Shown one piece after another: positions 1,161 through 29,836 of a stretch of 64,000 nucleotides of DNA (its first letter is position 1; every line of letters starts with the position of its first letter). The notes under the pieces are model-generated. The model made no database searches. It saw only the letters and a program-made list of their open reading frames with translations, and was not told the origin of the DNA. The translations under genes were made by a program, and so were the position numbers. Origin of the DNA: Phoronis australis (lineage: Eukaryota > Animalia > Phoronida); NCBI GenBank assembly GCA_002633005.1, contig NMRA01000108.1, positions 229,006 to 293,005 on the forward strand. Reading direction: 5' to 3'.

Positions 1161-2088
1161 TAAGATACAAGGATAGAGTTCAGTAGCAGTCTCGCGGCTA
1201 GAAACATTTAGCCAAAATCACGTGTTCTCGTTTAAATACACTGCAATATCTCGCGTAATCTAGCGTGGTTTTTCAGCGAGGTCCTAACGTTTCTGAACTC
1301 CACCAAGTGTTGGAAAAGTAGAAACCAAGCCCTTCAGTCGTATGTCTAGGATTTAGAAAGATCTTGGTTAGGCTAAAAAGGCATAATTCATGTAGGCTCT
1401 AGTCTGCGTTTTTTTTTGAGAATTTGATACGGTGGTGCGGTATGCATATAGTTTTACTTTTTTAGAAGTCATAAAATATCCTTTAAAGGGATGCGCGATT
1501 GTCTCCAGCCTCAACGATCCAGTGACTCGGTGGTACTCTGATCGACTGGGGTGATTTTACTCATGGGCTTTGGGGAACTGGCCGCGACCCAATAACCGCA
1601 CACCTTTCAACTAAGAAACAGGTGATTCGTGTTAAGTTGCCTTGCGATGTTGTGACATACGTTTGTGTCGCTTTTGGATACAAAAATTGCAACAACCGTT
1701 GGGTTTGGGCGTTGTTTTTGTTTAAACAATGAGGCGCACTTTTCCAAAAGGTTTAGACGCATACCAGAACCACTTATTCTAATTGCCTTGATTTTGTATA
1801 TATTTTAGGTACGATTACATTTGCAGCCTGAGCTGGTTGTGCAGTATCCGCCCGGATAGCCTGCTCTATGGCAACGTACATTGCAAAAGACTGGACTGCA
1901 GTCTTTGCAGTGCACCTGAAATTGCGGGCATTATTCACTTGTAATGTTCAAATGCACTTCATTCCATACAGCTCTAGCCCTGGAAGCCAACTCCGATGTC
2001 GCGGCCGCTGAGTTTGCGCCGCGCATTCTTGAGAGTTCTTTGCATTCGTTTGTTTGTGTACTTGCTATGGAATTTACTGTCATCAAAA
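1161..2088 (-). repeat. Duplicated block, copy A (paralog of 25321-26135), carrying a defensin-like exon
   Basis: Colinear similarity with 25321-26135 from TAAGATACnAGGATAGAGTTCAGTAGCAGTCTCGCGGCTA to GTACTTGCTATGGAATTTACTG. Confidence 0.9.
1805..1915 (-). pseudogene. CSalpha-beta defensin-like terminal exon A (VHCKDCSPVFCNVRCHRAGYPGGYCTTSSGCKCNRT*), probably frameshifted relative to copy B
   Basis: Acceptor aatttcag|GTG at 1916/1915. Cys pattern C-x4-C-x3-C-x9-C-x5-C-x-C with GxC gamma core, then TAA at 1807-1805. An 11-nt deletion versus copy B removes the RIRR site and changes the entry phase. The upstream signal exon was not found. Confidence 0.7.
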
Positions 2089-2359
2089 CTTTATGCAGGA
2101 CCACCAAATCATTAGAAGGCCCTTTGTGAGTCCTTGATGATTATTCCAGAAGCAAAAGATAAATAACTCAATTCACAAGTATTATCATTTCGCATACCTG
2201 ACTAGTTTAAAAGCACTTTTTTATTTTTAAAAACAAAAAGTGTTACCATGCGAAACTAAGTGCGTGTGATAGTAACATAAAAAAGATGTTCCAACTTCAG
2301 CAGGTTTTGATGTCTCAAACATCATCACCAGGACAAACAATTAGGGCCATCTAACAATA

Positions 2360-2715
2360 TTGACCCAAATGTTATTTAGCACGGGTTTTAAGATGGCGAT
2401 TAGTTTGTTCAGTTCTAAGGATAAAACTCCTTTTGGTCTTAGTCCTGGGTAGCGTATAAATTTGTTTGTGCTGGTTGTGGTTCCAGCTACATTGGTGAAA
2501 CTACTCGCTAACTTAAAACCCGGGCTAAAGAACATTTAGGTACTGACAATAGTTCTCACATTAATGACCACTTGCAGAGATGCAGACACTGTAAAGGCGA
2601 GTCGACATTCAACAAATGATTTGGTATTCTGGATCAGAGTGAAACAACAAAGGAACTTAAAATTCGTGTGTTAATTTACATTAGGTAGCTCAAGCCTGAA
2701 AAAATAAGCAGCTCT
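2360..2715 (+). mobile_element. Penelope-like retroelement remnant (GIY-YIG endonuclease region)
   Basis: Manual translation: FSSKDKTP...YKFVCAGCGSSYIGETTR*LKTRAKEHLGTDNSSHINDHLQRCRHC. This matches the Penelope YKF.C..C...YIG.T.R.L..R..EH motif and is disrupted by stops. Confidence 0.85.
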
Positions 2716-2733
2716 CACCCAGCACGCTGTCAC

Positions 2734-2865
2734 TAGTGCTGTACTTGGGCGTAGGCGCAGACAACCACATTTTGGCAATTAATCATAGCGCCTACACGCC
2801 GTAAGTTACGTTATAATGGGGCGAAGGCGCAGCCAACCATCTTTTTACATCTTAACGTAGCCCCA
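2734..2865. repeat. Fragment of a small MITE also present at 42895-43044
   Basis: GCGTAGGCGCAGnCAACCAC...TAGCGCCTAC...CCGTAAGTTACGTT is the reverse complement of 42961-43025. Confidence 0.7.
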
Positions 2866-3440
2866 TTAAACACGACTGAGAACATGTAATAATCTATTTA
2901 TACCACATACTAAACGAGAAACATTGCAATGAATCGATCTACCTTTCTCGACTCGCCTCGGCTTTGTAACTACTTTCTATGTCAGAGGCCGGGGTCGGAG
3001 GTCGTGACCTTTTAAGAAAAGCCGAGCTATTTTTGTCAAATAATGCTTATTCTCAAAACCAATTGGAAATTAAAACAAAATAGAAATGAAGTGAATCTCT
3101 AAATTAAGATTAAGCGACTATTATAGCTTAAAACACGTTTTTTACACGCTAAGCTTCGACCGGGAAATTATCGTCTGCTAAGGTAGGTTACCACTGGTAA
3201 CTGAATAAAATTCTTAAGTCAAAGATCCTGACGACACGATACCCGCATTCAAACTGGAGATCGGTGATTTACAAGTAAGAGGACATGAGAGAAAAATTTC
3301 ACTGAATTAATATCTCATTTTTATGGAAATTATGTGTCTTATTTTTCGTAGCGTATAAGTACAGTACAATGCGGTTTGTTGAACGTGCGATTATTGCGCG
3401 TGCTCATTTAAATATTCTATTTTCACACTTGATGACGTCA

Positions 3441-3515
3441 GTCGCTGAGTGGTGTAGTGGTTAAAGTCGGCGACCAGCAATATTAGGGTCCCGGTTTCGA
3501 CCCCGTCCTCGGTTT
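3441..3515 (+). other. tRNA-derived Pol III cassette inside arm 1 (not a functional tRNA)
   Basis: A box TGGTGTAGTGG and B-box-like GGTTTCGACCCC with tRNA spacing; the acceptor stem does not pair. Confidence 0.6.
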
Positions 3516-4301
3516 CCCGCCAAATCGTTATCTCACTTTATGGGTTATTACACGGTTGTATCTGCCATTTGACGCTAATATTGTGGTATAAATATAGATT
3601 ATTACATGGCGAAGTCATTATCCCCCGTTATCTAGAGCCCGAGTGAATTTTGGAGAATTATCGCCCGAGGGGCGTCAGCCCCGAGGGTGATAATTCTGCA
3701 AAATCCACGAGGGCTCTAGATAAGGGGGATAACGACTGAGAACATGTAATAATCTATTTATACCACATACTAAACGAGAAACATTGCAATGAATCTATCT
3801 ACCTTTCTCGACTCGCCTCGGCATTGTAACTACTTTCTATGTCAGAGGACCGGGGTCGGAGGTCGTGACCTTTTAAGAAAAGCCGAGCTATTTTTGTCAA
3901 ATAATGCTTATACTCAAAACCAATTAGAAATTTAAACAAAATAGAAATGAAGTGAATCTCTAAATTTAGGTTAAGCAACTATTATAGCTTAAAACACGTT
4001 TTTTACACGCTAAGCTTCGACCGGGAAATTATCGTCTGCTAAAGTAGGTTACCACTGGTAACTGAATATAATTCTCAAGTCAAAGATCCTGACGACACGA
4101 TACCCGCATTCAAACTGGAGATCGGTGATTTACAAGTAAGAGGACATGAGAGAAAAATTTCACTGAATTAAGATATCATTTTTATGGAAATTATGTGTCT
4201 TATTTTTCGTAGCGTATAAGTACAGTACAATGCGGTTTGTTGAACGTGCGATTATTGCGCGTGCTCATTTAAGTATTCTATTTTCACTCTTGATGACGTC
4301 A

Positions 4302-4376
4302 GTCGCTGCGTGGTGTAGTGGTTAAGTCGGCGACCTCCAAACTCTAGGGTCCCGGGTTCGACTCCGTCCTCGGTTT
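4302..4376 (+). other. tRNA-derived Pol III cassette inside arm 2
   Basis: A box TGGTGTAGTGG and B box GGTTCGACTCC. Confidence 0.65.
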
Positions 4377-5700
4377 CCCGCCAAATCGTTATCTCACTAG
4401 TGAGATAACTTTATGGGTTATTACACGGTTTTATCTGCCATTTGACGCTAATATTGTGGTATAAATCATCGTATTCGTATTAAAAACATAATGCACACTG
4501 CAAGCGATGCAATATTTTTGCCTTTAGACGCAAATACATTTGAGCTTTTTATTGATCATACAGTAGGCCAATCGAATTTCGAGTCACCGTGACATCCCGT
4601 GCAGTCTGCACAAGTTGAATAGTCATGTAGTGCTCTATTTTTCCCAAACATATGTCTGGACGGAAGCAATCAGTGTGCCCAGTGTTTCCATCCTTTCATT
4701 TGACGGTGGTGCATCGTTTCAAAAGAGGGGGTGCCTTGTCATTTCCCCCACTATCGCGCAGTCAATACCTGATTTCTTGTTTCGACCTCTACACTGGTGT
4801 TCGGAGTACTGATTTCTTCCTGCTCATATGCAGGAAAAGTTGCCAAACCAGTATTTGGACCCAGTACATTCTAAACCAACCATAACACCACAAACTAACA
4901 TACTTTTTCGTCGCACCGTGCATGTCCCTGGCAGGCTTTTGCCGCTGCACTGCCATGAGTCCATGAAAAGACGTGTGGTCCCTGGAACTAAAAACAGCAA
5001 CAGAGGAAATGCTGCAGTGCGAAAACCGCCAAATGTAAAGCAAGAAACGCATAACAAGAGAACGCGCCAGAGCACAGAACAAGCAAGAAGAACGAAAATG
5101 GAGGATAGATAACCTAATACAAAAATGAGGCATTTGGACAATGGACGAGAAAACGGGGAGTTCGAGAAAAGGAGGGGGTGGGATTAAAAAGTGGAGTACG
5201 GAATTTAAATTGATTAAAATCGAGTGATGATATTACCTCGGAGTTAGGATCGAGGACACAAAATTAAAATTCACCAATGGATCAAAATAAAATTTCCACG
5301 CCCTTCGCTATCATTACATCTTAAAGTTCTGAGCTCAAGATGAAACACTGGGTGTTAGCAATTATAATTGCAAAATGTAATATCAACAAAAGATCTGAGA
5401 GGAATCTGTCAACAAACGAATAGTCAACATATCAGATAGCATCGAGTAACTCGAGATAGGCGAGTGGGAGAAACAAATCGATGGCATACCCCCTCCCCCC
5501 AAAAGAAAGCCCTCTAAGGAGTGACACTTAGCGAAATCGACTGAAAAGGGGAGTGTGATGACGAAGATAGCGACACCGTAGATGACAACGTCCATGTCAG
5601 CATAAAAATATAGAGGAGGCCACGATATCGCCGTCATCACTGTCAAAGATTAACATACTAGACTATACTCGCAGAAAACTCTTCAAAAACATAGTCGAAT

Positions 5701-5746
5701 ACAACACTGAAGACAACACTGAAGACAACACTGAAGACAACACTGA
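5701..5746. repeat. 12-bp minisatellite (ACAACACTGAAG) x ~4
   Basis: Directly visible tandem copies. Confidence 0.9.
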
Positions 5747-7235
5747 GGCACTCAAAATAAGTACGAAGCCGAAAATATTGACGAAGTAGGTGAAAGGAAA
5801 CCACCGCCAAAACCGACGACGCTAGCAACACAAACGCCGCTTATACTCATGGTAAGACGCCCATGGTAATGGTAAGTCGTGAAGACAAACCGATGACACA
5901 TTCCAAATAACCCTAGACGTGATACATGTACATCTACCTATTAAATATCGGGAGAATCATACATTTGCACAATCGAACATAAGTTGCGTCTTTCTATGGA
6001 GGTCAATCGACAAGAAAGTGGGTATTGATCAGTCAACAAACGAAATGCCGCCACATTTCAAATAATTCGAAATCGTTAAATCGATGTGACAAACGTTGCA
6101 CACGTTCATGATAGCCGTTGGTGAGATCTATTCATATATCAAGTTTCAAAAAGATCCGTTACGAGACAGTGGAGCTGCATCTCCGCAAAGTAAAAAACGC
6201 CCTCATGCACCCTATTTCAAGCAAAATGAGTCAACCTTGGGGTATGGATGAGAAACGTCGTGTGTAAAATTCATATTTAATCTTATAAGAAAGGTGACCT
6301 GTAATGGTCATATTTGTCAATTTTCTATTTCGTGTCATTTTTCATAATAAAACGTCTCAAAATCCGAAAGGAAGAAAATTTATCAGCGTTCACTTACAAC
6401 GAAGTGAACTATTGCTTACAGACCAATTTTTGTAATGTTTGTTCAAGCCATTCCGAAAGTCAAATGTAAAATAATAATTGGGGCTGTAGGCACCATCTTG
6501 AATATAAAGTTTACCTGAAACTCGACACTTTTGTATAGTCATCATAAACGCATAACACATCCATTGCATGCATATTGCGATCCCTGTTGGAGAAAACGTG
6601 TTCTGGACACGAAATAAGGTATTTCAATAAAAATGTCGTTCTATCCACCATATTGAAAGGAAAGGGTTTGAAATTTCAGTTATAAGTACAACATGCCATC
6701 TGATATATACTGTACGTGGCGATTTTGAACGCAGTATAATGAAAAATGTGGATTTTAGAAGTTCCTGTGCAATTTTGAAAACAAAATGGCCGCAATGTTC
6801 GCCACAATGAATCTGATTATGAAGGAAAACAATAGGCATCGAGGACTTTACACGTTTTGTAAATTTCATGTCGAACAGACGACGAAAAATGCGACCTGTA
6901 TACTCCAAACAAACAAATTCAATTCACGTCAGAGTAATATACTTCTCATTTAAAAGTTCGTTTCATCAAGCAATTAATATATATCTACACAAAACATGAA
7001 CAAAATCCAGCGCATCACCATGTTGAAATGTAGAAAACTGAAGTTGACAGACGTCAATGAAGTTATTTTGTTGGTTACAGAGTACCTAAAGGTTCTGCTG
7101 CGTATATTCCCGAAGATCACAGCATATCCTGACAACCATTTGTTTAACCTACACATGTACATTATTATAGCGTACCGTCATGAAGATTTTTTGTTTTTTC
7201 GATAATTTCGTTTCTATTTTGTTTTCTAGGTAACC

Positions 7236-7294
7236 ATGAAGAACGTTGCGTTTTTTTTCGCTCTATTGATAATCATGACTGCCATAACTGCAAC
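7236..7294 (+). CDS. Candidate signal-peptide exon (MKNVAFFFALLIIMTAITA) of a small secreted protein
   Basis: Strong acceptor tttgttttctag (7229), Kozak-like ACCATGA, K-hydrophobic core-AxA pattern and donor AC|GTGAGT (phase 2). Downstream exons are unresolved. Confidence 0.5.
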
Positions 7295-8476
7295 GTGAGT
7301 ATCTACTGCGTATTATATAAAACGCGTTGAATCTGTGGAGGGAAATACGGCCACGTAATAATGTTTTCCGTATTCCCCTCCCGCAGTACTTCAATAGCGA
7401 CCTCTGACGTGGAAAGTTCAAAGGGTAGGTCAATGTCGACTCGACGTTGATAGCCGGTTCGATCATCACACATTCGGAAAATAGTTTAAAGTAATGCAAC
7501 TGCAACAATGTGAGTAACACTAAACATGCAATTAGGTCTCAATCGTAACATCCGGAACAGGACTGTTATAGCTCTGTCTCACCTTCCAATTGCTAAATAT
7601 TATGTCGTCTGCAACTCAGTCGCCGATTCTTCGGTAACTACAATATGAAATAATGTTGTTATTTAGCTTATTTTCAGGAGATGTTACAAGTTCAATGCAC
7701 GGTTATCGTTGCTTTCATCTTTGTTATCTCTTTTCAAGTAATGTTTCTTTTACTAAAGAAAACTTGCAACCTAACGCGCAAGTACATACATAGAGGTTGT
7801 GATCCGCCACTTGAACAGTCTGAGCGAAGCATTTGAAAAATCTGGCGAAAAAAATGAAGGAACTGAGGAATTTGATGCGTATCATTTTCACGAAAGACGT
7901 TGATCTAGTCGGTTGGCGACTAGTCTTTCACATATGGCACATCACATTTACAAAATACCGCGAAAAACGGGTAATGAGGCTGGATCTCGAGAGATCATAT
8001 CGGTTCGTATCCGCGCCAAATAAACCGCAAAAAACGTTTCGTCATTGTTGTAATTTGAATGAGTTTTGTAGCAGTTAGTTCTTAAAAATGGTAATTTTAA
8101 TCCTTGTAGATGAGAAAATCTGTATTTGTCGACTCGTTTATGTATCAAAATAAAGACTTATCTCCCTTGTCATGCATACTCGGGGAATTCTCTGTCAATG
8201 GAATCCCCTAGTATAGAATCGCCACGAATGCGGACGATGTTGGAGTACCTGTAGTATTAATTGAAGCAACTTTAAAACGAAAAACATCATTGAAACGGTT
8301 TAGTTATCACTAAGTGAACATAAAACGTTCACTGTGCGATTAAAATAAAACTAGTAGAAGAAGCACAGTTGACAGGTCAACTAATTGCGCTTTGACGTTC
8401 CCACACTGAACTGAAATTTGTTTGCTTATTAGCCCTGTAGTTCACCAAACTTTAGTAGATCTTTGCCGTGCACTAA

Positions 8477-8684
8477 CAGTGGCGGATATAGGATACCATA
8501 AGGGGGGCCCCAACATGTTGCCTCGGAGAATTGGGCAAAGCGCGATTGTATGCACAGCCGCCCCGAAAGTTACGGGGGCCGGCGATGGGACCTGGTGTTC
8601 CCCCCCCCCCCAAAAAAAACGGCAACCCGATTCCGCCGCGCTCCGGGGCTTCCTGTTCCTTGTTGGTGAACTCCATATTTCTTC
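8477..8684. mobile_element. MITE (CAGTGGCGGAT family), truncated by the gap; related copy at 38599-38916
   Basis: Shares CAACATGTTGCCTCGGAGAATTGGGCAAAGCGCGATTGTATGC and the terminus with the 38599 copy. Confidence 0.8.
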
Positions 8685-9494
8685 NNNNNNNNNNNNNNNN
8701 NNNNNNNNNNNNNNNNNNNNNNNNNNNNNNNNNNNNNNNNNNNNNNNNNNNNNNNNNNNNNNNNNNNNNNNNNNNNNNNNNNNNNNNNNNNNNNNNNNNN
8801 NNNNNNNNNNNNNNNNNNNNNNNNNNNNNNNNNNNNNNNNNNNNNNNNNNNNNNNNNNNNNNNNNNNNNNNNNNNNNNNNNNNNNNNNNNNNNNNNNNNN
8901 NNNNNNNNNNNNNNNNNNNNNNNNNNNNNNNNNNNNNNNNNNNNNNNNNNNNNNNNNNNNNNNNNNNNNNNNNNNNNNNNNNNNNNNNNNNNNNNNNNNN
9001 NNNNNNNNNNNNNNNNNNNNNNNNNNNNNNNNNNNNNNNNNNNNNNNNNNNNNNNNNNNNNNNNNNNNNNNNNNNNNNNNNNNNNNNNNNNNNNNNNNNN
9101 NNNNNNNNNNNNNNNNNNNNNNNNNNNNNNNNNNNNNNNNNNNNNNNNNNNNNNNNNNNNNNNNNNNNNNNNNNNNNNNNNNNNNNNNNNNNNNNNNNNN
9201 NNNNNNNNNNNNNNNNNNNNNNNNNNNNNNNNNNNNNNNNNNNNNNNNNNNNNNNNNNNNNNNNNNNNNNNNNNNNNNNNNNNNNNNNNNNNNNNNNNNN
9301 NNNNNNNNNNNNNNNNNNNNNNNNNNNNNNNNNNNNNNNNNNNNNNNNNNNNNNNNNNNNNNNNNNNNNNNNNNNNNNNNNNNNNNNNNNNNNNNNNNNN
9401 NNNNNNNNNNNNNNNNNNNNNNNNNNNNNNNNNNNNNNNNNNNNNNNNNNNNNNNNNNNNNNNNNNNNNNNNNNNNNNNNNNNNNNNNNNNNNN
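8685..9494. other. Assembly gap (N run)
   Basis: Run of N bases. Confidence 1.

Positions 9495-9533
<39 letters not shown>
9495..9533. repeat. (CA)n microsatellite
   Basis: Directly visible; abuts the gap. Confidence 0.97.
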
Positions 9534-9538
<5 letters not shown>

Positions 9539-12485
9539 ACACATATTTCTTGTGAAAAAACACTCATAGCTTAAATATCAGACAGTCCCTCAAGATTTTT
9601 AAATCGAAAGCATTATGTCATGACTCTTTAACCACACGGGTACTGCCACTATTATCTGCTTCAGAGTCACTAACTGAAATGGACTATTGACATTTGTTGT
9701 CATTTACGATTTCTACATTTCATCATTGACATTTTTAAAGCTGGTGTAAACTACCACACCATCACTAAAGATCAAAAACTAAACAATAAATTGTCATCAG
9801 TTTTACAACCTTTTTTTCTTAAAGCAGATCCTCTTATAAACAAGAACAACCATCCATCAGTTTTACAGTTAACTACACACTGAATTTCAAAAATTGATTA
9901 CGCAGAAATTCTCTAGTTTGGGACAGTGTTTAATTATATTGATCAAAGTCGGAGCTTGTCCCAATTTTTAGAAATTCACACAATTGTCTGTCAGAAATTC
10001 AAGGGGAATGGCCACAATTTATTAAATGTTTGTCATGAGAGTCACTTTTTATGAACTTACAGGAGTATTCTTGAAACCTGTTATGCTACAACATAGCGTT
10101 AGGAATTTGAAAAGTACGAAAATATACAAATCACTCACGCCTCAAACTTCAGGATGAAAAAATTAAATTTCAGCCATGATTTTTGTGTTCTGAATTTAGG
10201 AGGCTGTCTCAATCTGGAGAATTTTTAATGTCATATATCACCGATCTCATTAATATCATCAACTATGTCACCTTTGCTAAAAATAAATGTTAAAAACAAT
10301 TATAAGCTATAAATGTGAGCCATCCGAAAAATGTTCAAACATACATCATTGCCCGCGTGATGACGAATGCACTAAGCAGTCAATAGCCTCTGTATAGCAC
10401 AGAGTTGAGGGTTTTTGGCAAACATCTACATGTATCCCATACATTATGGCTACAGTGAATTCATTCTTAGTCATATCCGATATATGCAGTGAATGACACA
10501 TAGTAACAGAAGTGATAGCCCATGTGTCATCCAGTTTCCTCATGGGAAGGCTAAGTTCAAATTTTTCTGAAGTCTTGCAAAGATCATCCAAACATGTAGT
10601 GATTTTAAACAACAGTTTCTGATCAAGTTGCTCAGTTGAATCTTTAGACATGTTTGACAGGAAAGGGTTGGATTGTTGATAATCCTCAGATACTGAATAC
10701 CCATGGTCAACTAACTCTTTGCTCCTGTTGGATTCTTAGAAACAGATGGCGAATCAGTCCATTAGTACATGTTTCTGTCTATCTTTAGACTGAGCAATGA
10801 GATTGCTGACATCCATTCGTGCTGATTTCTGCATCTCAGTGTGTGAGTTTTGAACAAAACGAAATGCCCATTAGAGACGGTGGTCACTGTCTAATCCACT
10901 AAATAATAGGAATGTTATTCAGTTGTTACATTGGCATCAAGTTTTTTCGACCATGCCCTTTTCCTGTTGTTCGTTTCCCATTTTTTCCCAACAACACGTG
11001 TATTCGCGTGGTCAAGTCTAGACATTTTCTGTCACTGACACTGGCACTGGTCTGGTGTGTTCCATCTGGCTAACAATAACAGTCTGACTCTGTGAGGTAT
11101 AACTAGTGAATCTGCACTGAAATTATTACAACATGTTGATAGCGTCATTCTCAAAACCAGGAAACATTATATCCGACTTGTTTCCAAAGTAGTAAGGTGT
11201 GATAAAACTGAACTCTGAAGTCGAAGTCCAAGCGGCCAGTCACACAGTGATGTGTCGAAAGTCACCAATTAACCTTCAATTCAGACCCCTTTTAACTCAC
11301 TCTTTATGCAAATACAACCGTAGAGGCGTACGTGACTGGCCCCGGTTAGATTCCCGGTTCGGAGATTAATCTGAGTCGGCATTTACAACAGTTTTTCAGT
11401 AACATTTACATTAAGAAACGCGATAGGCCTACTGCCTAACACGGAAATCGCGAGCCACCGTGTTTACAAAAGCGCCGTCTACCGAGCAAAAGGATAGAAG
11501 TGAACTACTTTCGCGCAGGCAAATGTACTCCATATGAGTAACATAATACACGCAGTGTTGGCTTACGTAGTAAATGGATGCGTATGGAATAAATACAAAA
11601 CGTACCTCGATTGGTCAATACGCGGAATAATGTCTCGTGAGATATTACTTCATCAACGCCACTATCGGTACATTCTGTGTAATTATATAATACGACGAGA
11701 CCGTGTGCAGGACCTTATTACATTCTTCCATTTTTAGTCGCCCCGATTCTACGAACGGTTACCAAGCGCACCTCTGTACGTGCTCATTTTCTAAAAACGA
11801 CGTTTTTGGTGAAATCATTCGACCGTTATTTTTGCTGTAACGTCACCTAAAACACTCCATGTATTTTCGTAGCCTGAGATTATCTCTCGTAGGCGTATCA
11901 CATTTGCAAAATAATTTGTTCAAGAGACGGCTATAGTCATGGCTTCAGCAATTGCACATCTCCAACTCGTACGAGATGTCCCTCTCAATCTTTAATAATT
12001 CTCTTTAGTAATTTTTTATAGCTAGGTGTTGTTTTTGTGTGTTATCACAAGGGTATCTCGGTGCATTCGACGGCATTCTGCATTATAGCAGGCCAGTGTA
12101 ACCTACACATTCTACATTTTGTTTGTATTATTGCTTCCTGTGATGCACAGATACGTAACAAGTCCGAAGGATAATTTGAGGCTAAGAAAATGATATCCAA
12201 CGAATTCCGGATGCAGTCACACCCGACCTTTGTATTTGGATAACCTCGAATAGTTTCAGAACAGGTGAACGTTGTATGTGCATATGTAAATCTCGGTCAT
12301 CCGGAAAATCTTGTGAATTTCAAATTGGTGAGCAATTAAGCTGTTTGACTTAAAATCCCACAAGCACAACCTGTACTGCCACGAGGAAATTTGAGGCTAG
12401 GAGTAAAATACCCGAGGTACGAGCTCGTCTCATCAATGAGATATAACCTAAGTGGTTAATTTAACTTATTTGTTTCATCGACTAC

Positions 12486-15326: not shown

Positions 15327-15490
15327 CCCGGGTGTCCTGTCCGATCCCCTGGGTTCCTGTTTTAAAGGTCGCCGGAGTTTGTGTGTTTTGGGTATGGTTA
15401 ACTGTTTTGAAGGTGCGGTAGTCTGTTTTCGACTCCGGGATACCTGGTTTACACTGGGGTTCCAATTTCGACGGAACACTCCTTGGATAT
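15327..15490 (+). repeat. Inverted second copy of the 14320-14430 segment (probable LINE 5' end)
   Basis: The reverse complement matches CTTCAAAACAG..AAC...CACAAAC...GACCTTTAAAACAGGAA.CCAGG.GATC.GACAGGA.ACCCGG. Confidence 0.75.
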
Positions 15491-17689: not shown

Positions 17690-17885
17690 CGATACCCAAT
17701 GTGTAATTGAGTATCGGATACTAAGTGGCGCAGGTTAGCATAGTACCAACTGGGTACATAATACCAAATCGGTATTGGCCGATTGCCTACCAAGTGGGTC
17801 GAACGAAACGGCAAATTCAATAACAAGTACCAAATGGGTACAACTGCCAAATGGGCAAATATCATATAATAAAGTACCACCAAAC
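17690..17885. repeat. Cluster of short degenerate (G)TACCAAnTGG motifs, likely subterminal repeats of a DNA element
   Basis: GTACCAACTGGGTAC, ATACCAAATCGGTA, CTACCAAGTGGG, GTACCAAATGGGTAC. Confidence 0.5.
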
Positions 17886-19639
17886 AGCCAACTGTGCTAT
17901 AACAACCTGCAAAGCAGGTTCCGGACAAGCTAAGTGAGCAGACCAGCCGGAGTGATAAAAAGATATATTGTAAGAAACGTGTTGTTGTGGCTCAGTATGT
18001 GCCACATGGGCAGGGTTGTTCACGGATGAACAATCCTGTCCACTGCCACTTTGCCTTTAAAAAGTTTATGTTTTGATTTTATTTGAATCAAATAAATAAC
18101 TAACACAAATTTAACATGTGTAATACATTTTTGAGGTCAGGGCAGCTAGGGTCTTTCTGGTTAACAACTGACACCTATTCGATTTTAGTTATGGCTCATG
18201 GTTCTTACTAAAGCGATAAAGGCCTGGCTGGACCAGTGGTTAGATTCGATGTTTCCATCTTATATTGGTTGGCTAAAAAAATTGACTTTGATTAATTTAC
18301 AAAAATATTTGATCGTGCTGTTTTGTCCTCCCTTAGTCACCGATGCGTGTAAAAGAAAAGAATACATTTCTGAATTTCTGTCGTTTTTCAAGTTTTTGAG
18401 CTGTTTTTCTGCAGGTGACGTAGAGAAAACGACAAACAGAAGTTGTGTATCGACTTTCATTTTTTCCACAAAAAAAGAAAAACCGATAGTTAATCAATTT
18501 ATGATTTTCATTTCTCCATTTTTCGAAGAAATTGAAAAAACATTAGAACATCGGAAATTGGCTCGATTTTCTAACGAAGAACCCATTCGGTTCTCTCATA
18601 ATTGGACCGGAAAAAAGTTTTAAGTTTACGGTGTTATGCTGATATAACACAGATTTTTGTTTAAAACCTGTACTATTATTGTCTGTAATTGTTTTGGTGT
18701 GTATTGTGTGAAGTGCTTTGAAGTAGGCAACTGAAAACAAAGTATTGTAAATTTAATCTGCTTCCAAGGTGATTCTCGTCTGTGAAAAAATAAAATATGC
18801 CGACTTGTAGAAGGCCGTAAACAGAGTTATAACCAAATTATTTTACAAAATTTTGACAGAAAATGAAAGCATACTACAAAAAGGAAGATTTATACATGCG
18901 TGCATTTGTGTGTCTTACACTGGATGTTGTATAGTTTGTCTATTTTCAATGCTTTAAATAATATTAGAATCCAGACCTCACCATGTATCATTTCGAAACG
19001 AATTAATCGACCGTTACTTGGATACAGTTTTTTAATATCTGCTGCTTAATTTTACTCGAGGTTACACCACAATTTCGGACATCGACGCAGCTTTACAAGT
19101 AGGTACATGGGTCTATGCATGCACATATTAAAAGGTTACACTGTGGCAGAACCGAAATATGAATATACACTGTATCAAGCTTGGGTAAAACATTCAGTTT
19201 GGCAACATGCTCTAATGAAAAAACAATATCTACTCACTCTTGAATTTATATTATTTATAATTTGAATATCCAACTGGGTAAAAAATAACAGGTAACGTAA
19301 GCATTACAAGCATGTAAGATGCTGAACAGAAAGATATGCTTAAAGCTCTTGAAACCACCATTTACTATGTCTAGACGTGTGTCTACATTGTCAGCATCGT
19401 TAAATCTCCCTTTAGAGCACTGCACAACCGTGAATTCAATATCCCCAAACAGAGAAAGCAGAAGAAAAGCGACTTTAAGAAAGTTTAATAGCTCACACAT
19501 GAGTGTGACGTATGAACGTACCCAGCACCCAAGTGTGTCATGTCCACCAACACCAACGTGTACAAAAGTGTGCTATATTCACGAACGCATTAAGATCGTT
19601 TGGAACATCTAGTACTACTGGAATCTTATCTACCCAATC

Positions 19640-19875
19640 GCATCTACAGTCAGCGCGAATTGATGGCGTGTATTCAATGTCGTTTTCTCCGGGTTACGTG
19701 ATTGCGGGTTTGCCCCTGGACAGTGTTCTTGGTCCATTACTTTACCTTCTATACATCAATGACCTTACCGACAATATCTCATATAAAACCTATCAAGACG
19801 CTGATGACACGTCTTGTCGCTCTTCCTTCATTCCCTAAGGCCAATCCACCACATACGAGATGATCTACGTCGGCT
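19640..19875 (+). mobile_element. Old RT fragment of the same LINE family as 21011-23774
   Basis: ARIDGVYS...AGLPLDSVLGPLLYLLYINDLTDNISYKTYQDADDT aligns to VRIEGVLS...AGVPQGSVLGPLLFLLYINDLPDTISSKTFLYADDT. Confidence 0.88.
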
Positions 19876-20039
19876 GTCCTTTATAATTTCTTAGTTTTCT
19901 TGGTAAGGAATGGAAAAACTGATGAGAATATTTCCGTCGTTGATTACAGCACCGCAAAATGAAGATGGAGACTGAGTATGACGCCTTGCATCAATGTCTA
20001 AAGTAACATAAATTATTTAGCCCGGTCAAATTTGGCGAA

Positions 20040-20331
20040 TTTATCCCACCAGTAGACTGCAAACCAACCGTGAAATACGGCTTCTGTCGTTGCATAGGGC
20101 TTCCACCGTGATATACGGATTGGCTCTAGATCAATTCATTACAATGTTTCTCGGTCAGTATGAGGTATAAAGAGATTATTACATGTTCTCAGTCGTTATC
20201 CCCCATTATCTAGAGCCCTCGTGGATTTTGGAGAATTATCGCCTTCGGTGCTGGCGCCCCTCGGGCGATTATTCTCCAAAATCCAATCGGGCTCTAGAAT
20301 ACGGGGGACAACGACTTCGCCATGTAGTGAT
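20040..20331 (-). repeat. Short-arm variant of the hairpin element (arm 20040-20171 + hairpin 20171-20331)
   Basis: Same palindrome (GATTATTACATG..TCTAGAGCCC..GAGAAT..ATTCTC..GGGCTCTAGA..CATGTAGT). The arm ends CAATGTTTCTCGGTCAGTATGAGGTATAAA and begins TTTATCCCAC. Confidence 0.8.
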
Positions 20332-20825
20332 ATGCCCTCGTTCAAATATTTTTGCATATCACGAATCTCGATAAATATTAACCACTGGTATAAACACGTA
20401 CGTTGTATAACCTATATTTACCCACTGAGTTCTAAAAACCCTTTTATATGTCACACATACCTCTGTATACCTAAGCGTTCAACACATTTTGTTGTTCAGT
20501 AGTTGTGCGTAAAGATGGCTCATGATTCGCTTTCAAATCCTAGATACACAGTTATGTCAAACTGTTCTTCAAATCACTCAAAGTGGCTGTAAACCCACAT
20601 TCCGTCGATGGAATTAAGTTTTGATTGAGCCCACAAGCTGACTTACGATCTTTGACCTTACTTAAAAAAGAAGCGTCAGGGCACGGCGCTAAAAATGACA
20701 TGATACAAGCCAACTTATAATACTCTAAGCTTGGTCGATTCTTTCCATACCCCTACACCACCTCTGAGTTCACTAACGAACACTTTTGATACCTATTTCT
20801 ATACATTGTACGTTTTTCCACAAAC

Positions 20826-23564
20826 ATGTATTTACGAAAACTACTTCATGTTTTTGTTGGAGGATCTGATGTCAATGCCTTCCCAAGCAGTCAGTGTTCA
20901 GTTCAGTGTCCAGCTGTTCACTGCTACAGCCTCGTTTTGAAGATGACCAAAATTCAAACTCTCAGCCGTCGATATTCGTGGGAACAAAAAAGCAGCAACG
21001 AAGAGACAAAAGAACCAGACATTATGAAGAAGATCTGGAATTACAACCTCATTAACATGGACAAACTGCGCTCTGACATAACCACATTCAACTGGACTGA
21101 TATACTTAACAAAAGTGACATAAATGACGCAGTCTCAATATTCACACAGCCACTCTACAACATATTAGATAATAATATCCCATCAACCATGAAAACAATA
21201 AAAAACAAGAACAAACCGTGGTTTAACAATAACATTAAGTCTGAAATAAATAAAAGAAATAAACTGTACAGATCGTTCAGAAGATCAAATAACCCATGCA
21301 CGTTCAAGTGCTACAAAGAACAGTGCAAGAGTGTGGAAGAACTAATTAAAAAGACAAAACAAGACTATAAGATGAAAGTTATCTCCAATATCAAAAATGT
21401 CTCCAAAAATTCTAAGGAATATTGGGATATAGTAAACAAAATTCGAGGACAGGTAAAGCAATCATCATACCCCACCATCCACTCAAAAGAATCCAACTCT
21501 CAGGCGTCATCCAAAGCCGATAAAAGTATCTTATTTCTAGACTACTTCACTGCCAAGAGTCACATTGCACCAACAATAAACTATCCAGAATTCCCAAACA
21601 GAACATTAGAACACCTCTCTTACATAGAAGCCCAACCATCTGAAGTCAGAAAACTACTAGAAAACATTGACGAAAACAAAAACGACGGTACCAATCTCAT
21701 AACCAATAAAATGATCAAGATAATAGCAAGAGAGCTTACACTTCCTCTGACAACATTATACAACAAAATACTACAATCTGGAAAATTTCCTTCGAACTGG
21801 AAGCTTGGCGTTATGATACCAATACACAAAAAGAACTCCAAAACAGACATTGCCAACTATCGCCCCATAACTCTACTTAACACCTTATCCAAAATTTTAG
21901 AAAAAATCATTTCTCAGCACATGTTTGACCACCTCTCTTCACAAAACCTCATATATCGTCGCCAATTTGGATTCATGCCTGGTAACAGCACTGTGTCGCA
22001 ACTTACAGAAATTGTACACGACATCCACCTCCAGTTTGAGCAAGGGTACAACGTGAGATCCGTATTTTTAGACATTGCGTCAGCTTTTGATGTCGTTCCC
22101 CATGACCTGCTTCTACATAAATTACAATCTTACGGTTTCTCAGGCACTCTCCTCTTACTTTTAAAATCATATCTGGAAAATCGAACTTACAAAGTCCGAA
22201 TTGAGGGTGTCTTATCACCTTCATCAACGCCAGGTTTCGTAAATGCTGGAGTACCACAGGGTAGCGTACTAGGCCCCTTACTCTTTTTACTGTACATCAA
22301 TGATCTTCCAGACACGATAAGCTCTAAAACATTCTTATATGCTGATGACACTGCAATATTCCACCCATTCTCAAAAGAGCATCCCCATGACTCCTTACAA
22401 TTGCAAACTGACCTTAACAAACTCTATGACTGGTCTCACAAATGGAAGATGAAATTTAAACCTGAAAAAAGTGTTGATCTTATATTTTCTAAGTCTAATA
22501 ATACTCATTTCCAAACAAATCCAACACTGGAATTATCACTCAATGGGGAAGTTATCCCCAATAAGTTCACGCACAAACATCTTGGCTTGCTACTCGACCA
22601 TAAGCTTACATTTACTCCTCATTGTCGCGAACTCGTTCAAAAAGTACAAAAATTAATTAATCCAATTAGAATTATCTCTCGTCATCTCAACTCCATGCAT
22701 CTTGAAACTCTGTTCAAGTCTTTTGTACTTCCACATCTAGATTACTGTGACATAATCTACCAATCGGCAAACGCTGGCATACTTCTCCAATTAGAAAGAC
22801 TACAATACCAAGCAGCTTTAGCCATAACTGGGGCATACAAAGGGTCCAACACAATCAAGGTTCTAAATAGTCTTCACTGGAGCAAACTAGCAACCCGTCG
22901 TAAACTCCACCTGTCCATGTATACATTCAAAGTCTTAACCAACATAAACAATTACTCTAACAAAATCCTCTTTGACTCCTACAAAAGACCAAGCACGAGA
23001 CCAGGACTCCGGCAAAGCAATATGTATACTATTCCAGCCTCCATCAGCCAAGCCTTCAGAAGATCAGCGATACTAACTTGTATTGACAACTGGAATTCCT
23101 TACCATTCAAAATAAAAGAAAGCACTTCAATCGTCACTCTCAAAAATAACTTTAAAATGCATACCACTACTCCAGACTTGCCAGTCCCATTGACATCATT
23201 CCAACTTCCCCGCAACCATGAAATAACCCTATACAGATCAAGATGTGGTCTATTCCTAAACAACGAGAAATTTAGACATAATTTTAATAATATTTCGGCT
23301 CTGTGTTCCTGTGGAGATACCCAGACATATCCTCATGTTTTCTTTGCTTGTGAGGTATGCAAGGAGGAGAGGGTACAGCTCTTCCAGGCACTCGAACAAT
23401 ACCCCAATGTTTATAAAAAATACTCTGAAATTCCGCAATTGTACAACAAAATTAATTTCTTTCTACATGGATGTCAAGAACTTAACTCAAACGAAAATAT
23501 GGTTTCATTTGAAATAGTATCAGAATTTCTTTATAACATTAAATCTCTTTGTGTGAGTGGATAG
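20826..23564 (+). CDS. LINE ORF2 reverse transcriptase (endonuclease missing; the first ~60 codons are flanking DNA)
   Basis: Motifs KPWF, NYRPITLL, QFGF, FLDIASAFD, GVPQGSVLGP, YADD and HLG; C-terminal CSCG-x6-H-x4-C zinc knuckle. Confidence 0.95.
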   Translation: MYLRKLLHVFVGGSDVNAFPSSQCSVQCPAVHCYSLVLKMTKIQTLSRRYSWEQKSSNEETKEPDIMKKIWNYNLINMDKLRSDITTFNWTDILNKSDINDAVSIFTQPLYNILDNNIPSTMKTIKNKNKPWFNNNIKSEINKRNKLYRSFRRSNNPCTFKCYKEQCKSVEELIKKTKQDYKMKVISNIKNVSKNSKEYWDIVNKIRGQVKQSSYPTIHSKESNSQASSKADKSILFLDYFTAKSHIAPTINYPEFPNRTLEHLSYIEAQPSEVRKLLENIDENKNDGTNLITNKMIKIIARELTLPLTTLYNKILQSGKFPSNWKLGVMIPIHKKNSKTDIANYRPITLLNTLSKILEKIISQHMFDHLSSQNLIYRRQFGFMPGNSTVSQLTEIVHDIHLQFEQGYNVRSVFLDIASAFDVVPHDLLLHKLQSYGFSGTLLLLLKSYLENRTYKVRIEGVLSPSSTPGFVNAGVPQGSVLGPLLFLLYINDLPDTISSKTFLYADDTAIFHPFSKEHPHDSLQLQTDLNKLYDWSHKWKMKFKPEKSVDLIFSKSNNTHFQTNPTLELSLNGEVIPNKFTHKHLGLLLDHKLTFTPHCRELVQKVQKLINPIRIISRHLNSMHLETLFKSFVLPHLDYCDIIYQSANAGILLQLERLQYQAALAITGAYKGSNTIKVLNSLHWSKLATRRKLHLSMYTFKVLTNINNYSNKILFDSYKRPSTRPGLRQSNMYTIPASISQAFRRSAILTCIDNWNSLPFKIKESTSIVTLKNNFKMHTTTPDLPVPLTSFQLPRNHEITLYRSRCGLFLNNEKFRHNFNNISALCSCGDTQTYPHVFFACEVCKEERVQLFQALEQYPNVYKKYSEIPQLYNKINFFLHGCQELNSNENMVSFEIVSEFLYNIKSLCVSG

Positions 23565-23774
23565 AATTTTATACATCTGTATGAAAATAAATTATTTTCA
23601 TTCGTTGTCATATATAATTGTATTCTTAACATCAGTTTTTTTATTTATGTATTTGTATATAATCATTGTATATAGACTTCTTTGTATTTTTTTACCCAGA
23701 TCTAATGCCTCTTGGCGCTTTCTGGGTTATGTATATTCACTGTATTCTGAAGATTTCGTAATAAACATTAAAAA
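21011..23774 (+). mobile_element. Young 5'-truncated non-LTR retrotransposon (CR1/L2-like group)
   Basis: Uninterrupted RT frame, AT-rich 3' UTR ending AATAAACATTAAAAAAA, and direct repeat AAGAGACAAA at 21001-21010 and 23775-23784 (TSD). Confidence 0.93.
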
Positions 23775-24618
23775 AAGAGACAAACGAAAGTCGCTTTGAC
23801 AGATCTTTATTTTGCCTTAGTCGTCATTACATTTATGTAGATGTGTAAATTTCAAATGTCATCCATGTCGTTGGCCTAGTACTTTGCTGAAAATCAAGTT
23901 TAAAACGCTAATTAAGTAATTGCAATCGTGATATACTCAAGCACAAAATGAAAGACACTTGTGTTGAGTACAGACTGAGGTAGACTGTAGACTTTTCATA
24001 ATATAAGTCAGAGTTATACATGTACATGTAGTTTCAGTGTCGACATGTCCCAGTGCGAAAAAATCATCATTCACAACTTTTGGAACTGATCGACTACAAA
24101 ACAATTTTCTCGACGTTGCGAAGCCGCCTGGCTCCTACTGGGACATGATGAATGCTGGCTCACGCACAAATTTCGTCGCCCTCTGTCGATTTTCACAGAT
24201 AATGGTCCAGGGCCTTGTAGCTTCCGTCTATGAACACCGGTAGGGGGCAATAAAGTTTTCGCGCGAGCCATTCAGTTATTGATCCCCAGTTGCAGAATCA
24301 AGGTGGTCCTAAAACGTCGGGAAAGTAATTTCGCAGAAGGTTCCAAACACTGTGATTTAAAGTTTTTCCGTATAGGTTATTCACCTGGACGCATCCACAG
24401 TAATCCCTGGCATCTGAAATGTCCCCGTGTTTGTGGGGTTAAAAGAGAATGCCACCCGATTTAATTAGTCTTTTTTACCGTCTTAATCGGTCTATATCCT
24501 CATCGCCTCGCATACGGTAGACCTTACCTTGCCGAGAGGTGTCGCGTTGACCCGGCTATGAGGAAGGTGAGAAACGACGCAGCGACGTCAGTGGTTCAGT
24601 TGCAGTGTGAATACCCCT

Positions 24619-24960
24619 ATGTTGCGGTGCATCGTTTCTGCTTGTGCGAACTATGAAGCTGCGAGGAAAGCGGGTATGTCGTTTTTTTGACTTCCTCGAG
24701 AGCCCGAATTGCTTAGGAAGTGGTTCGCGGTAGTGAAGAATGAAAAGTGCGATGTTAATAGCAAGTATGAGGCCATGAAACAGCTCCGTGTCTGTGGCCG
24801 GCATTTCGTCGACAATGATTTCTCTGACAAATGTCGGCGGCGAAAGAACTATCTATACGTTCCGTTGTCTGTGCATGTACACTGCGCCTCTCAAGTATTT
24901 CTTTATCAGTGTATTCCGGTTCGAACTGATGGCATGTCGAACATTACGATCCACATGTGA
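24619..24960 (+). pseudogene. THAP zinc-finger domain remnant of a DNA transposon
   Basis: MLRCIVSACANYEAARKAGMSFF*LPREPELLRKW...LRVCGRHFVDNDF has the C2CH ligands plus conserved P, W and F. One in-frame TGA at 24688-24690. Confidence 0.85.
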
Positions 24961-25320
24961 AGTCTTCGTCGGATGAACTCTCGTCTAAGTCGGGATTGCG
25001 AGTTGCCATGTTGACTTTTGCTATTTTGCGTTCTGTTTCAAAATGAATTATCCTGACCCTAACCTATGCTTATATAAACTGGAACAAAGTCCGTCTCATT
25101 GGATGCAATTTGTAATCCTTTGAAGTACATGGGTATTCGTGAATGCAAATGTTTTGAGAAGCCAGCAATGAATAAGTCACTGCGTTACCGGTACCGGTAA
25201 TTGACTGGGCATCGAGCCGTGTGAGCGCATTAGTCCCGAACTGTCTTTCGTTATAATGTTGCAGACGCCGTCCTGCTGTTCAATAAGCTGTCACTAGATT
25301 CTGCACCACACGATACGTCG

Positions 25321-26135
25321 TAAGATACTAGGATAGAGTTCAGTAGCAGTCTCGCGGCTATAAAACGTAGCCAAAATCACGTGTTCTCATCTAAAATACA
25401 TTGCAATGTCTCGGGTAATTTCGGGAAGTCGCGGTTTTCCAGCTAGGTCCTGACGTTATTGAACTCAACCCAGTATTGGAAAAGTAGACACCAAGCCCTC
25501 CAGTCGCATGTCTAATATTTGGAAGGATCTTGCTTAGGCTACAAAGGGACAATACCTGCAGGCTCTGGTCTGTGTTTCTGAGAATTGATACGGTGATACG
25601 GTATGCATGTAGTTTTACAGTTTTAGAAGTCACACAACATCCGTTAACGTGATGCGCGATTTTCTACAGTCTCAACGATCCAATTACTCAGTGGTTTTCT
25701 GACCGACCGAGTTAATTGTACTCATGGGGTGTGGGGAGCTGACCGCGACCCAAAACCACACCCTTGCAAATGCCATACAATGTTATTGCATACGTTTGTA
25801 AAGGTTAAGACCCATACCAGAAGCACTTATTCTATTTGCCTTGACTTTGTATATTTTTTACTTACAAATACAAACGCATCTTTTGTAGTTGCATCTTCCG
25901 TTACTATAGTTTCTGTCAATGCAATAGTCCCTGCACTCATGATCGATGCAATCTCTGCGTATTCTTTGCAGTGCACCTAAAATAGAGGGCATTATTCACA
26001 TGTAAAATACAGTTGTACTTCATTCCACACTGCTCTAGCCCTGGAACGCCAACTCCGATCTCACAGCCGCTGAGATTGCGCTTTGTTGCATTGTTTGTTC
26101 TGGTGTGTGTACTTGCTATGGAATTTACTGCCATT
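25321..26135 (-). repeat. Duplicated block, copy B (paralog of 1161-2088)
   Basis: Colinear similarity to copy A, ending at a TTAA at ~26134. Confidence 0.9.
25858..25976 (-). CDS. CSalpha-beta defensin-like terminal exon B ((G)ALQRIRR|DCIDHECRDYCIDRNYSNGRCNYKRCVCICK*)
   Basis: Acceptor ctattttag|GT (phase 1), furin-type RIRR site, C-x4-C-x3-C-x9-C-x4-C-x-C with GxC, and TAA at 25860-25858. The upstream exon was not identified. Confidence 0.75.
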
Positions 26136-26399
26136 AAAGAGGAAATTGCAAGATCCAAACCAATCTGAGCAACAATATGGTCTAAATTCTTGTTTATACT
26201 TATAACTGCTATATTCTTTACATTAACTGAATTATACGTCGCAATAGAAAATTATTTACATATTTAGTGCCGTGGTGTTGTAACGCCATTGTTGTTACGG
26301 AGAACGGAAACGGCGCCATTTTCTTTCGTTACACATCTGTGACGTGCGTAGAGGAACACAAAGGAAACAATTTGTGTTCAAGTGAGTGCAGCAGCGTAG

Positions 26400-29567: not shown

Positions 29568-29836
29568 GTTTCAGTGTACGAACTTAGTATATCACCGGGT
29601 TTATCCATACAAACGGGACAGCCAAATGCCACACACAAAAGCTTTTCACAATTTCCAGTGCTGGCACTGTAAACACTCTGACATTGCTATCTGTACCGCT
29701 ATCTAAAATTTAATCTAAAACATCGGTTGTGACTGTCAAATATGTGACGGAAAGAAATTCAAGTGCTGTACATTGACAAAGCAGCCAGTCTGACTTTATC
29801 TGGATAACGGATCCTATCTGTGCCACGGCATCCTCC

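Follow-up and report, generated by a model that had tools for sequence, protein, structure and literature searches.

Two short exons on the minus strand of a 64,000-nt stretch of Phoronis australis DNA (the window) are best explained as fast-diverged last exons of the defensin type, of which one (copy B) would belong to a gene for a secreted host-defence peptide and the other (copy A) would be a duplicate with a broken reading frame; we give this reading a probability of roughly two in three. According to the proposed mechanism, a signal exon at 35708-35614 would be spliced to copy B over a phase-1 intron of 9.6 kb, and the resulting 66-aa prepropeptide would be cut after the motif RIRR, thereby releasing a 31-aa peptide with three canonical disulfide bonds and one spare cysteine. 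By analogy with other CS-alpha-beta members, this peptide may have an antimicrobial role via microbial membranes or cell wall precursors. Changing microbial targets would then select for new residues, by which 22 of the 24 non-cysteine positions could have been replaced, while synonymous and flanking sites moved by only around 0.17 to 0.3 per site.

A duplicated block with two cysteine-rich exons

Copies A and B share a duplication of approximately 0.9 kb. A blastn comparison of the window with itself aligns A 1160-1610 with B 25320-25769 (82% identity) and A 1747-2087 with B 25800-26138 (74% identity), each in the same orientation, which confirms the initial annotation in that the blocks align across the intron and the 3' flank. 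On the minus strand, the 3' flank of A (1161..1804) is 81-89% identical to that of B, indels aside, and the intron remnant of A (1916..2088), to which the last ~160 nt of the B intron are homologous, shows 87% identity to B 25977-26138; the homology stops there. The 3' flank of B (25321..25857, minus strand), homologous to A 1161-1804, is low copy from 25655 to 25857, and neither of the canonical poly(A) signals AATAAA and ATTAAA is found up to 857 nt past the B stop codon. Elsewhere the flanks are partly repetitive: the region around 25350-25500, a fragment of a high-copy repeat, and the sequence from 26108 onward reach summed contig depths of 28,721 and 11,602, compared to about 47. The objection that the flanks might be a high-copy transposable element is thus partly justified; however, the low-copy parts keep 80-89% identity (50 of 56 and 111 of 138 positions in the flanks, 88 of 105 at the intron end).

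The cysteine frame is present in two copies in the 64-kb window, and the summed DNA contig depth over the B exon and its near flank corresponds to about one contig (at 85% likeness, more distant copies being possible). A search of sequencing runs gave no RNA run on record, whereas four DNA runs from a single sample matched 80-83% of the words; the assembly may have been built from these runs, hence they are not independent. Since only two copies were seen, a sizeable family is not shown. Apart from the two copies, a Tctex1 protein matches sea hare at 43% and bird at 39%, and an MGST1 fragment is 48-57% identical to proteins that include primate ones.

Both blocks contain on the minus strand a six-cysteine CS-alpha-beta frame of the invertebrate defensin or scorpion short toxin type, which runs from Cys1 at 1900 to the stop codon at 1805 in A and from Cys1 at 25950 to the stop codon at 25858 in B. 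A loose CS-alpha-beta pattern matched only these two sites in the six frames of the window and nothing in 100 shuffles. The exon of A (1805..1915), whose acceptor ends at 1916, holds an open cysteine frame from 1903 to 1808 with 32 amino acids, six cysteines and a net charge of +3. The predicted mature peptide of B (25858..25953) comprises 31 amino acids plus the stop codon, with seven cysteines in the spacing C-x4-C-x3-C-x9-C-x4-C-x-C-x-C. Its seventh cysteine, which the initial annotation had missed, is encoded by TGT where A has CGT. The net charge of only +1 and the odd number of cysteines in B were counted against the preferred reading. Between Cys1 and the stop codon, the copies agree in 8 of 30 aligned residues, namely the six cysteines, one Tyr and one Gly, and the cysteine codons are five TGC followed by TGT in both copies, exactly as first noticed. 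The Asp before Cys1 is also common to A and B, with one synonymous change; eight of the nine shared residues retain the same codon.

Both exons are predicted to encode a defensin-like CS-alpha-beta fold. The CSH motif (CxxxC and CxC, as defined in the available part of PMC5116183) and the third bridge pair are present in both copies, as is a gamma-core GXC at the fourth cysteine (G-Y-C in A, G-R-C in B). AF2 models, with pLDDT values of 87.6 for B and 91.7 for A, contain a helix (4-13) and two strands forming a hairpin. The best Foldseek matches listed were all CS-alpha-beta proteins, with TM scores of 0.83-0.90 for the best three of B; none reached E <= 0.001 for either of these short peptides. 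Pfam scores lie below the curated cut-offs: for B, 21.2 versus 27 for Defensin (PF24552; E 2.9e-4), 19.9 versus 25.1 for Gamma-thionin (PF00304) and 18.1 versus 25.1 for Toxin_2 (PF00451), and for A, 15.3 versus 25.1. In the PDB, the sequence neighbours comprise defensins of plants and insects as well as short peptides of scorpions.

Proposed gene structure and RNA coverage of copy B

Copy B likely belongs to a whole gene for a secreted peptide. A predicted exon for a signal peptide and propeptide segment (35614..35708, minus strand; ATG at 35695, 82 coding nt), which lies outside the coordinates of the initial annotation, is preceded by an acceptor and followed by the phase-1 donor GAG|GTGAGA, and would encode a hydrophobic signal of around 19 amino acids and a short Gly/Asp-rich pro segment. 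It was the sole match when both strands were scanned for a signal with a phase-1 donor (h>=3.0); of 100 shuffled sequences, 4 passed the stricter cut-off of h>=3.4. The putative phase-1 intron (25977..35613, minus strand) is 9,637 nt long and repeat-rich, and further exons may be located inside. The donor agrees in phase with the acceptor of B, whose last coding exon would start with the end of the propeptide (25954..25976, minus strand) including a furin-type RIRR site (25965-25954). This site, at which the propeptide would be cleaved, then lies immediately upstream of the Asp-Cys that A and B have in common. Judged from the sequence, gene B is predicted to encode a 66-aa prepropeptide with an RIRR site.

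RNA covers the B exon in two of three runs with few reads each: the mean depth over 25806-25956 is 2.79 in run X6 and 3.87 in run X7, and run X5 contains no RNA on the exon. All first mates map to the plus strand and none to the minus strand. A GT..AG joint elsewhere, which served as a control for strandedness (0 versus 14, 6 and 53 reads), indicates that the libraries read the strand opposite to the RNA, so that the signal on the B exon represents minus-strand RNA. No spliced read from 35614 to 25976 was seen among the RNA reads examined, which extended only to 29400, and the splice to the signal exon is a prediction from sequence.

Two further gene models were considered. A plus-strand reading, with a hydrophobic stretch at ~26080-26135 and an acceptor-like stretch at ~1809, was rejected because no start codon or donor is present in both copies, B has no AG, and the RNA is on the minus strand. 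Less likely is a phase-0 model, in which A would be intact and B broken: the donor of the sole signal exon detected is of phase 1, and B then carries RIRR just before the shared Asp-Cys.

Copy A and possible alternative last exons

Copy A likely is a frame-broken leftover, i.e. a dead duplicate. Between the shared acceptor and Cys1, A has 15 nt and B has 26 nt; this difference of 11 nt puts the two exons into different frames. Moreover, A has no RIRR and, at the shared acceptor, is out of frame with the phase-1 donor. No signal-exon paralog for A was found by blastn or tblastn in the window or by a relaxed scan of 1917-25321, in which the best candidates were antisense of an RT element or had weak donors. 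One probably dead copy fits the birth and death that had been suggested for this locus.

It is also conceivable, but unlikely, that a single gene with one signal exon uses A and B as alternative last exons. This exon would be joined to B via the 9.6-kb intron and to A via a 33.7-kb intron using an AG at 1903, an in-phase site that bypasses the cleavage motif, and A and B would form a small cassette encoding variable mature peptides. The location of A downstream of B on the same strand, the missing signal-exon paralog in the window, the restriction of homology to the exon and its flanks and the fact that the AG at 1903 requires phase 1 all agree with such an arrangement, as does the estimate that a copy evolving neutrally since the duplication keeps six cysteines, the stop codon and an open frame only ~0.2 of the time. 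However, the AG at 1903 is an AAG, and 13 nt ahead of it lies a stronger CAG acceptor whose use leads to the frameshift, the product of A would be without RIRR, and an assembly gap of 810 N between A and B (8685..9494) could hide a signal exon of A's own. Equally improbable is a scheme in which a single signal exon is combined with duplicated last exons of the defensin type that are used in a mutually exclusive manner, namely A, B and possibly a third form; the mature antimicrobial peptide would then vary both by exon choice and through alleles that differ strongly, at dN/dS values of about 10-20. The supposed 3' flank of the third form is expressed in run X5, whereas the B exon is not. There is also a form that joins 25322 to 25580, which would represent a third paralog or a divergent allele if its cysteine frame differs. 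A literature search, in which sources were available in part, found no defensins with mutually exclusive last exons, which is not proof of absence.

Divergence of the mature region

The divergence between the exons has likely been driven by positive selection. From Cys1 to the stop codon, 41 of 90 nt are identical (46%), compared to 571 of 674 (85%) in the non-coding flanks, and the identity changes exactly at Cys1 and at the stop codon. The contrast gives Fisher p values of 2e-14 to 4e-15 over five gap placements, 20,000 neutral simulations with a divergence set to 15% never gave a value as low as the exon identity, and non-cysteine codons are 32% identical versus 85% in the flanks. The initial annotation was thus right that the mature region is more divergent than its non-coding surroundings. 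In a two-sequence codon model, omega is 8.7-9.4 for all 31 codons with d fixed at 0.17 from the flanks, 17-21 for the non-cysteine codons when anchored to the flanks, and 5.2-5.7 for the exon alone (dS 0.26-0.29, p 0.03-0.04); these values derive from one sequence pair and our own simple codon model, with pN saturated (0.76-0.78), and multi-base mutations or local hypermutation would inflate them. A two-class codon model gave p ~5e-4 and rejected dS >= 0.9 (2dL >= 6). The pairwise estimates, from ~5 for the exon alone to 9-21 when flank-anchored, accord with the proposed rapid diversification at dN/dS above 1; with only two sequences, the acceleration is not assignable to a branch.

The fixed cysteine codons, which had been taken as a special signal, are within chance at this divergence: given that six cysteines are kept, all six codons stay identical with P = 0.58 under neutral change at 15%. 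Identical codons are expected at this age and would therefore date the pair rather than reveal codon protection, in line with PMC3823881, according to which cysteine codon identity follows from amino-acid conservation and descent.

If the exons were instead old paralogs, the likeness of their flanks would stem from gene conversion or shared repeats and no acceleration would be needed. We regard this, too, as improbable. The high copy number of ~25350-25500 and of the sequence from 26108 onward would fit, and third positions match in 9 of 22 changed codons, which is near saturation; however, the low-copy flanks and the intron end retain the identities given above, the shared residues largely keep their codons, including five TGC, a codon used for 5 of 21 cysteines in two long ORFs of the window, the exon-only model yields a dS of ~0.3 and rejects >= 0.9, and the shift in identity coincides with Cys1 and the stop codon. 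Somewhat less probable still is that the mature region owes its changes not to stepwise selection but to local hypermutation or to replacement by a distant donor copy. Such an event would explain why two or three bases are altered in 20 of the 22 changed codons (printed alignment, gap codon excluded) and would fit the lean towards transversions (ts/tv 17/32 in the exon versus 53/50 in the flank, p 0.058), but the Cys, Tyr and Gly codons inside the region carry no synonymous change, unlike what a region-wide mutator would leave, and no donor was seen in the window.

Relation to known peptide families

The evolutionary pattern is already known; the sequences are new and represent a strongly diverged defensin-like member. 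A HMMER search for relatives of B among 1.84 billion representatives gave no match at E <= 0.001, a word-index search with the 44-codon frame holding B gave no candidates, and the best score for B in the ESM Atlas was 0.86, which is a lead only. The description as 'undescribed' therefore applies only to the sequences; publications on snake PLA2, conotoxins and mussel CRP-I already report the pattern.

Short-n-loop defensins (Nasonia nasonins and navidefensin3, scorpion Cll-defensin 1, heliomicin/ARD1) share with A and B the six-cysteine frame, CxxxC and CxC, the GxC gamma-core, the predicted helix and hairpin and tandem duplicates, and, according to the available parts of PMC2853521 and PMC5116183, a phase-1 intron after the signal region, as proposed for B. 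Nasonins are without a propeptide, whereas B would have one ending in RIRR and has a seventh cysteine; within the sample of PMC2853521, as far as its available part goes, defensins and nasonins gave no signal of positive selection. Mussel MgCRP-I (PMC4558851) resembles A and B in its hypervariable six-cysteine mature part and in the frameshift pseudogenes and positive selection that are likely here, and its last exon has the architecture proposed for B, in that it begins with the end of the pro region and the dibasic site and also holds the complete mature peptide together with the 3' UTR; its pre-pro part is conserved and its cysteine codons are preserved. However, A and B have no adjacent CC and differ from the array C(X3-6)C(X1-7)CC(X3-4)C(X3-5)C, and MgCRP-I comprises at least 67 loci with four exons, compared to two copies seen here. 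In conotoxins (PMC3823881), hypervariable loops likewise lie between fixed cysteines and are preceded by a conserved pro region, but fold and host are different. In crotaline snake PLA2 (PMC7285919), an unrelated enzyme family, UTRs (98% and 89%) and introns are more conserved than the coding sequence (67%); the contrast is stronger here (85% versus 46%), for one pair only.

The scorpion short K+ channel toxins BmBKTx1 and cobatoxin have the closest predicted shape (TM 0.82-0.90 for B), with ~30% identity, mostly at cysteines. Of the original 'defensin/toxin' assignment, the defensin-like part stands. That the peptide is an ion-channel toxin and not an antimicrobial is the least probable of all readings: the short n-loop and the scorpion short toxins among the best structural and language-model neighbours of B (score 0.84-0.86, leads only) speak for it, but KCXN, the toxin signature according to the available part of PMC5116183, is absent from both copies (G-Y-C-T-T in A, G-R-C-N-Y in B), antimicrobial defensins with a short loop (nasonins, scorpion Cll-defensin) share this shape and occur in the same match lists, and nothing links the host to venom.

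Taken together, copy B would add a lineage-specific defensin-like gene without detectable relatives and a candidate antimicrobial peptide; annotation by homology would miss it because of the 9.6-kb intron and the 30-codon exon. The contrast between coding and flanking sequence is among the sharper ones for such a pair and would provide a clean small case for host-microbe arms races. A signal exon common to A and B, if proven, would make the finding more significant.

Divergence of the duplicated exons

Self-comparison of the window revealed two direct duplicate segments, 1160-1610 versus 25320-25769 (82%) and 1747-2087 versus 25800-26138 (74%). Each copy carries on the minus strand a cysteine frame of the spacing C-x4-C-x3-C-x9-C-x4/5-C-x-C, which runs from Cys1 at 1900 to the stop at 1805 in copy A and from 25950 to 25858 in copy B; these are the only two matches to a loose cysteine pattern in the six frames of the window, and 100 shuffled windows contained none. 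As accurately described in the initial annotation, the blocks can be aligned as duplicates, the two frames agree at 8 of 30 residues from Cys1 to the stop (six cysteines, one tyrosine and one glycine), and the cysteine codons of both copies are the same (five TGC, one TGT). The homology ends around 170 nt upstream of the common acceptor, with nothing in common beyond.

The coding sequences are identical at 41/90 positions (46%), or 23/72 (32%) without the cysteine codons, compared to 571/674 (85%) for the non-coding sequence (Fisher p 2e-14 to 4e-15 across five gap placements), and in 20,000 neutral simulations at 15% divergence the identity always stayed above 47%. The proposal that the mature region has diverged beyond its flanks is therefore borne out. 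It had also been considered that the flanks could be a high-copy transposable element. Parts of them are indeed repeats, but without the distal repeat, the flanks are still identical at 50/56 and 111/138 positions and the intron end, which may contain a lower-copy repeat, at 88/105, and the contrast is thus independent of the repeat. Summed DNA-contig depth, which does not equal copy number, was 48 over the B exon and 66 at 25655-25805, near that of a single contig (46), whereas it reached 28,721 at 25353-25503, 996 at 25957-26107 and 11,602 at 26108-26258, marking these flank parts as repeats; nothing in the DNA run analyzed pointed to numerous copies of at least 85% likeness to B. A THAP domain fragment (24691-24957, plus strand, E 8e-6) adjoins the 3' flank of B within a high-copy repeat.

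Several other features were found in the window. An open 924-codon reverse transcriptase ORF of a non-LTR retrotransposon (20790-23564, plus strand; RVT_1, E 6e-35) is located between A and B, and a tandem pair of around 720 nt (2872-4466, 95% identical), of which further copies are present at 20127-20326 and 44354-45214, lies directly upstream of A. The plus strand also contains an MGST1-like MAPEG coding stretch (48179-48478, E 1e-16) and, in a single frame, a Tctex-1 domain protein (58054-58824, E 1e-25), half of which aligns with a sea hare protein at 43% identity; a weak match to a Tesmin/TSO1-like CXC domain on the minus strand (60241-60531, E 9e-4) is below the cut-off. The host is inferred to be an invertebrate animal.

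Probable selection and cysteine codons

Counts between A and B gave a saturated pN of 0.76-0.78 and a pS of 0.34-0.37. A purpose-built simple codon model, which uses two sequences of 31 codons and ignores multi-base changes, yielded an omega of 8.7-9.4 when the neutral distance was set to that of the flanks (0.17) and of 6.5-7.1 when it was set to 0.22; the 25 non-cysteine codons, with the neutral distance taken from the flanks, had an omega of 17-21. Without the flanks, dS was 0.26-0.29 and omega 5.2-5.7 (p 0.03-0.04 versus 1; p 0.03-0.05 for the non-cysteine codons alone). With the cysteines fixed and the rest free, p was about 5e-4, and a dS of at least 0.9 was rejected. Thus, the suggested dN/dS analysis gives an omega above 1 for this one pair, and the model results indicate that the exon is of about the same age as its flanks, with an excess at amino acid-changing sites. 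The exon leans to transversions (17/32 versus 53/50 in the flank, p 0.058).

The cysteine codons are identical in all six cases, as had been noted; however, no special mechanism is necessary, since retention of six cysteines at 15% divergence leaves all six codons identical with a probability of 0.58. The same view is taken for conotoxins in PMC3823881. The codons are useful as a clock: TGC accounts for only 5/21 cysteines in two long ORFs of the window, and five shared TGC codons would therefore be unexpected if the exon pair were old and saturated and its flanks had been converted.

Proposed gene structure and possible expression of B

The last base of the common acceptor is 1916 in A and 25977 in B, with 15 and 26 nt, respectively, between it and Cys1, so that B requires a phase-1 and A a phase-0 donor. 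Read in phase 1, B has an RIRR site directly before Asp-Cys1, the Asp of which is common to A. A minus-strand scan for hydrophobic N-termini with a good donor downstream identified one strong candidate signal exon (35708-35614) with an ATG at 35695, 82 coding nt, the phase-1 donor GAG/GTGAGA, a branch point and an acceptor 13 nt upstream of the ATG. It is the only such match on either strand; a comparable score was reached in 4 of 100 shuffles. Spliced to B across 9,637 nt, it would produce a 66-codon frame encoding a signal, a short acidic, glycine-rich propeptide, RIRR and a mature peptide of 31 amino acids. In mussel CRP-I genes, too, the last exon is described as encoding the entire mature peptide together with the pro tail and basic site (PMC4558851).

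B is present in four DNA runs, all of one sample. One of these four DNA runs and 18-19% of each of three RNA runs labelled as the same species were mapped to 24900-29400 at 85% likeness, a stretch that excludes the signal exon. Over the B exon (25806-25956), mean RNA depth was 0, 2.79 and 3.87 with first mates on the plus strand, and 0 on the minus strand in all three runs. A GT..AG joint at 26635-27918 (plus strand, 1,282 nt), within the putative intron of B, was covered by first mates on the minus strand only (14, 6 and 53 reads); hence, the libraries report the strand opposite the RNA, and the B reads represent minus-strand RNA. These few reads per run hint at expression of B and are no proof of a spliced mRNA. 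The joint itself may stem from a repeat copy elsewhere or an antisense transcript.

A form joining 25322 to 25580, in which 25323-25579 is replaced by three other letters, was found in one DNA contig (depth 37) and seven reads of X5, an RNA run with coverage of the 3' flank and zero reads over the B exon. The left break of this form lies within a few bases of the end of the A-B homology; possible explanations are a deletion allele and a third copy carrying another exon.

Fate of copy A

With a phase-1 donor, the main acceptor of A leads to a frameshift and an early stop, and the only in-phase acceptor, a weaker AAG at 1903, bypasses the cleavage site. On these grounds, A is most probably a dead copy and may have been one from the outset: a neutral copy retains six cysteines, the stop and the open frame with a probability of about 0.2 over half of the A-B divergence. 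No signal-exon paralog for A was found in the window, in which an 810-N gap (8685-9494) between A and B could hide one. That A and B are alternative last exons sharing one signal exon is improbable; the pair is read as two copies, one of them probably dead.

Predicted fold and relationship to known peptide families

B weakly matches the Pfam families Defensin, Gamma-thionin and Toxin_2, and A Gamma-thionin, all below the curated cut-offs. Among PDB entries, the nearest sequences are defensins of plants and insects and short scorpion peptides, and searches uncovered no sequence relative. Single-sequence AlphaFold2 models of both copies contain a helix (residues 4-13) and two strands (pLDDT 87.6 for B, 91.7 for A). 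CS-alpha-beta structures, the fold of invertebrate defensins and scorpion short toxins, head both Foldseek lists, with TM scores of 0.83-0.90 for the best three of B, and no entry of either list attains E 0.001. Both copies possess the CSH motif and the GXC gamma-core as defined in PMC5116183, which also names KCXN as the mark of toxin-like members; KCXN is absent from A and B, and a scorpion-type channel toxin was rejected on this motif. Judged by testable features, B is a CS-alpha-beta defensin-like gene. A has six cysteines and a net charge of +3, B seven and +1. The seventh cysteine of B (25864-25866, minus strand; TGT, CGT in A) is C-terminal and apparently unpaired, and could link two peptides covalently or stay as a free thiol.

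The pair is real, strongly diverged and without known relatives, and its pattern is already in print. Introns and UTRs that are more conserved than coding regions have been published for snake PLA2 (PMC7285919), conotoxins and mussel CRP-I, the latter with frameshift pseudogenes, and Nasonia is described as having short-loop defensins in tandem whose introns are of phase 1 (PMC2853521). B is neither a conotoxin nor a CRP-I peptide; the pair as such works like the fast-evolving secreted peptide families of snake PLA2, conotoxins and CRP-I.
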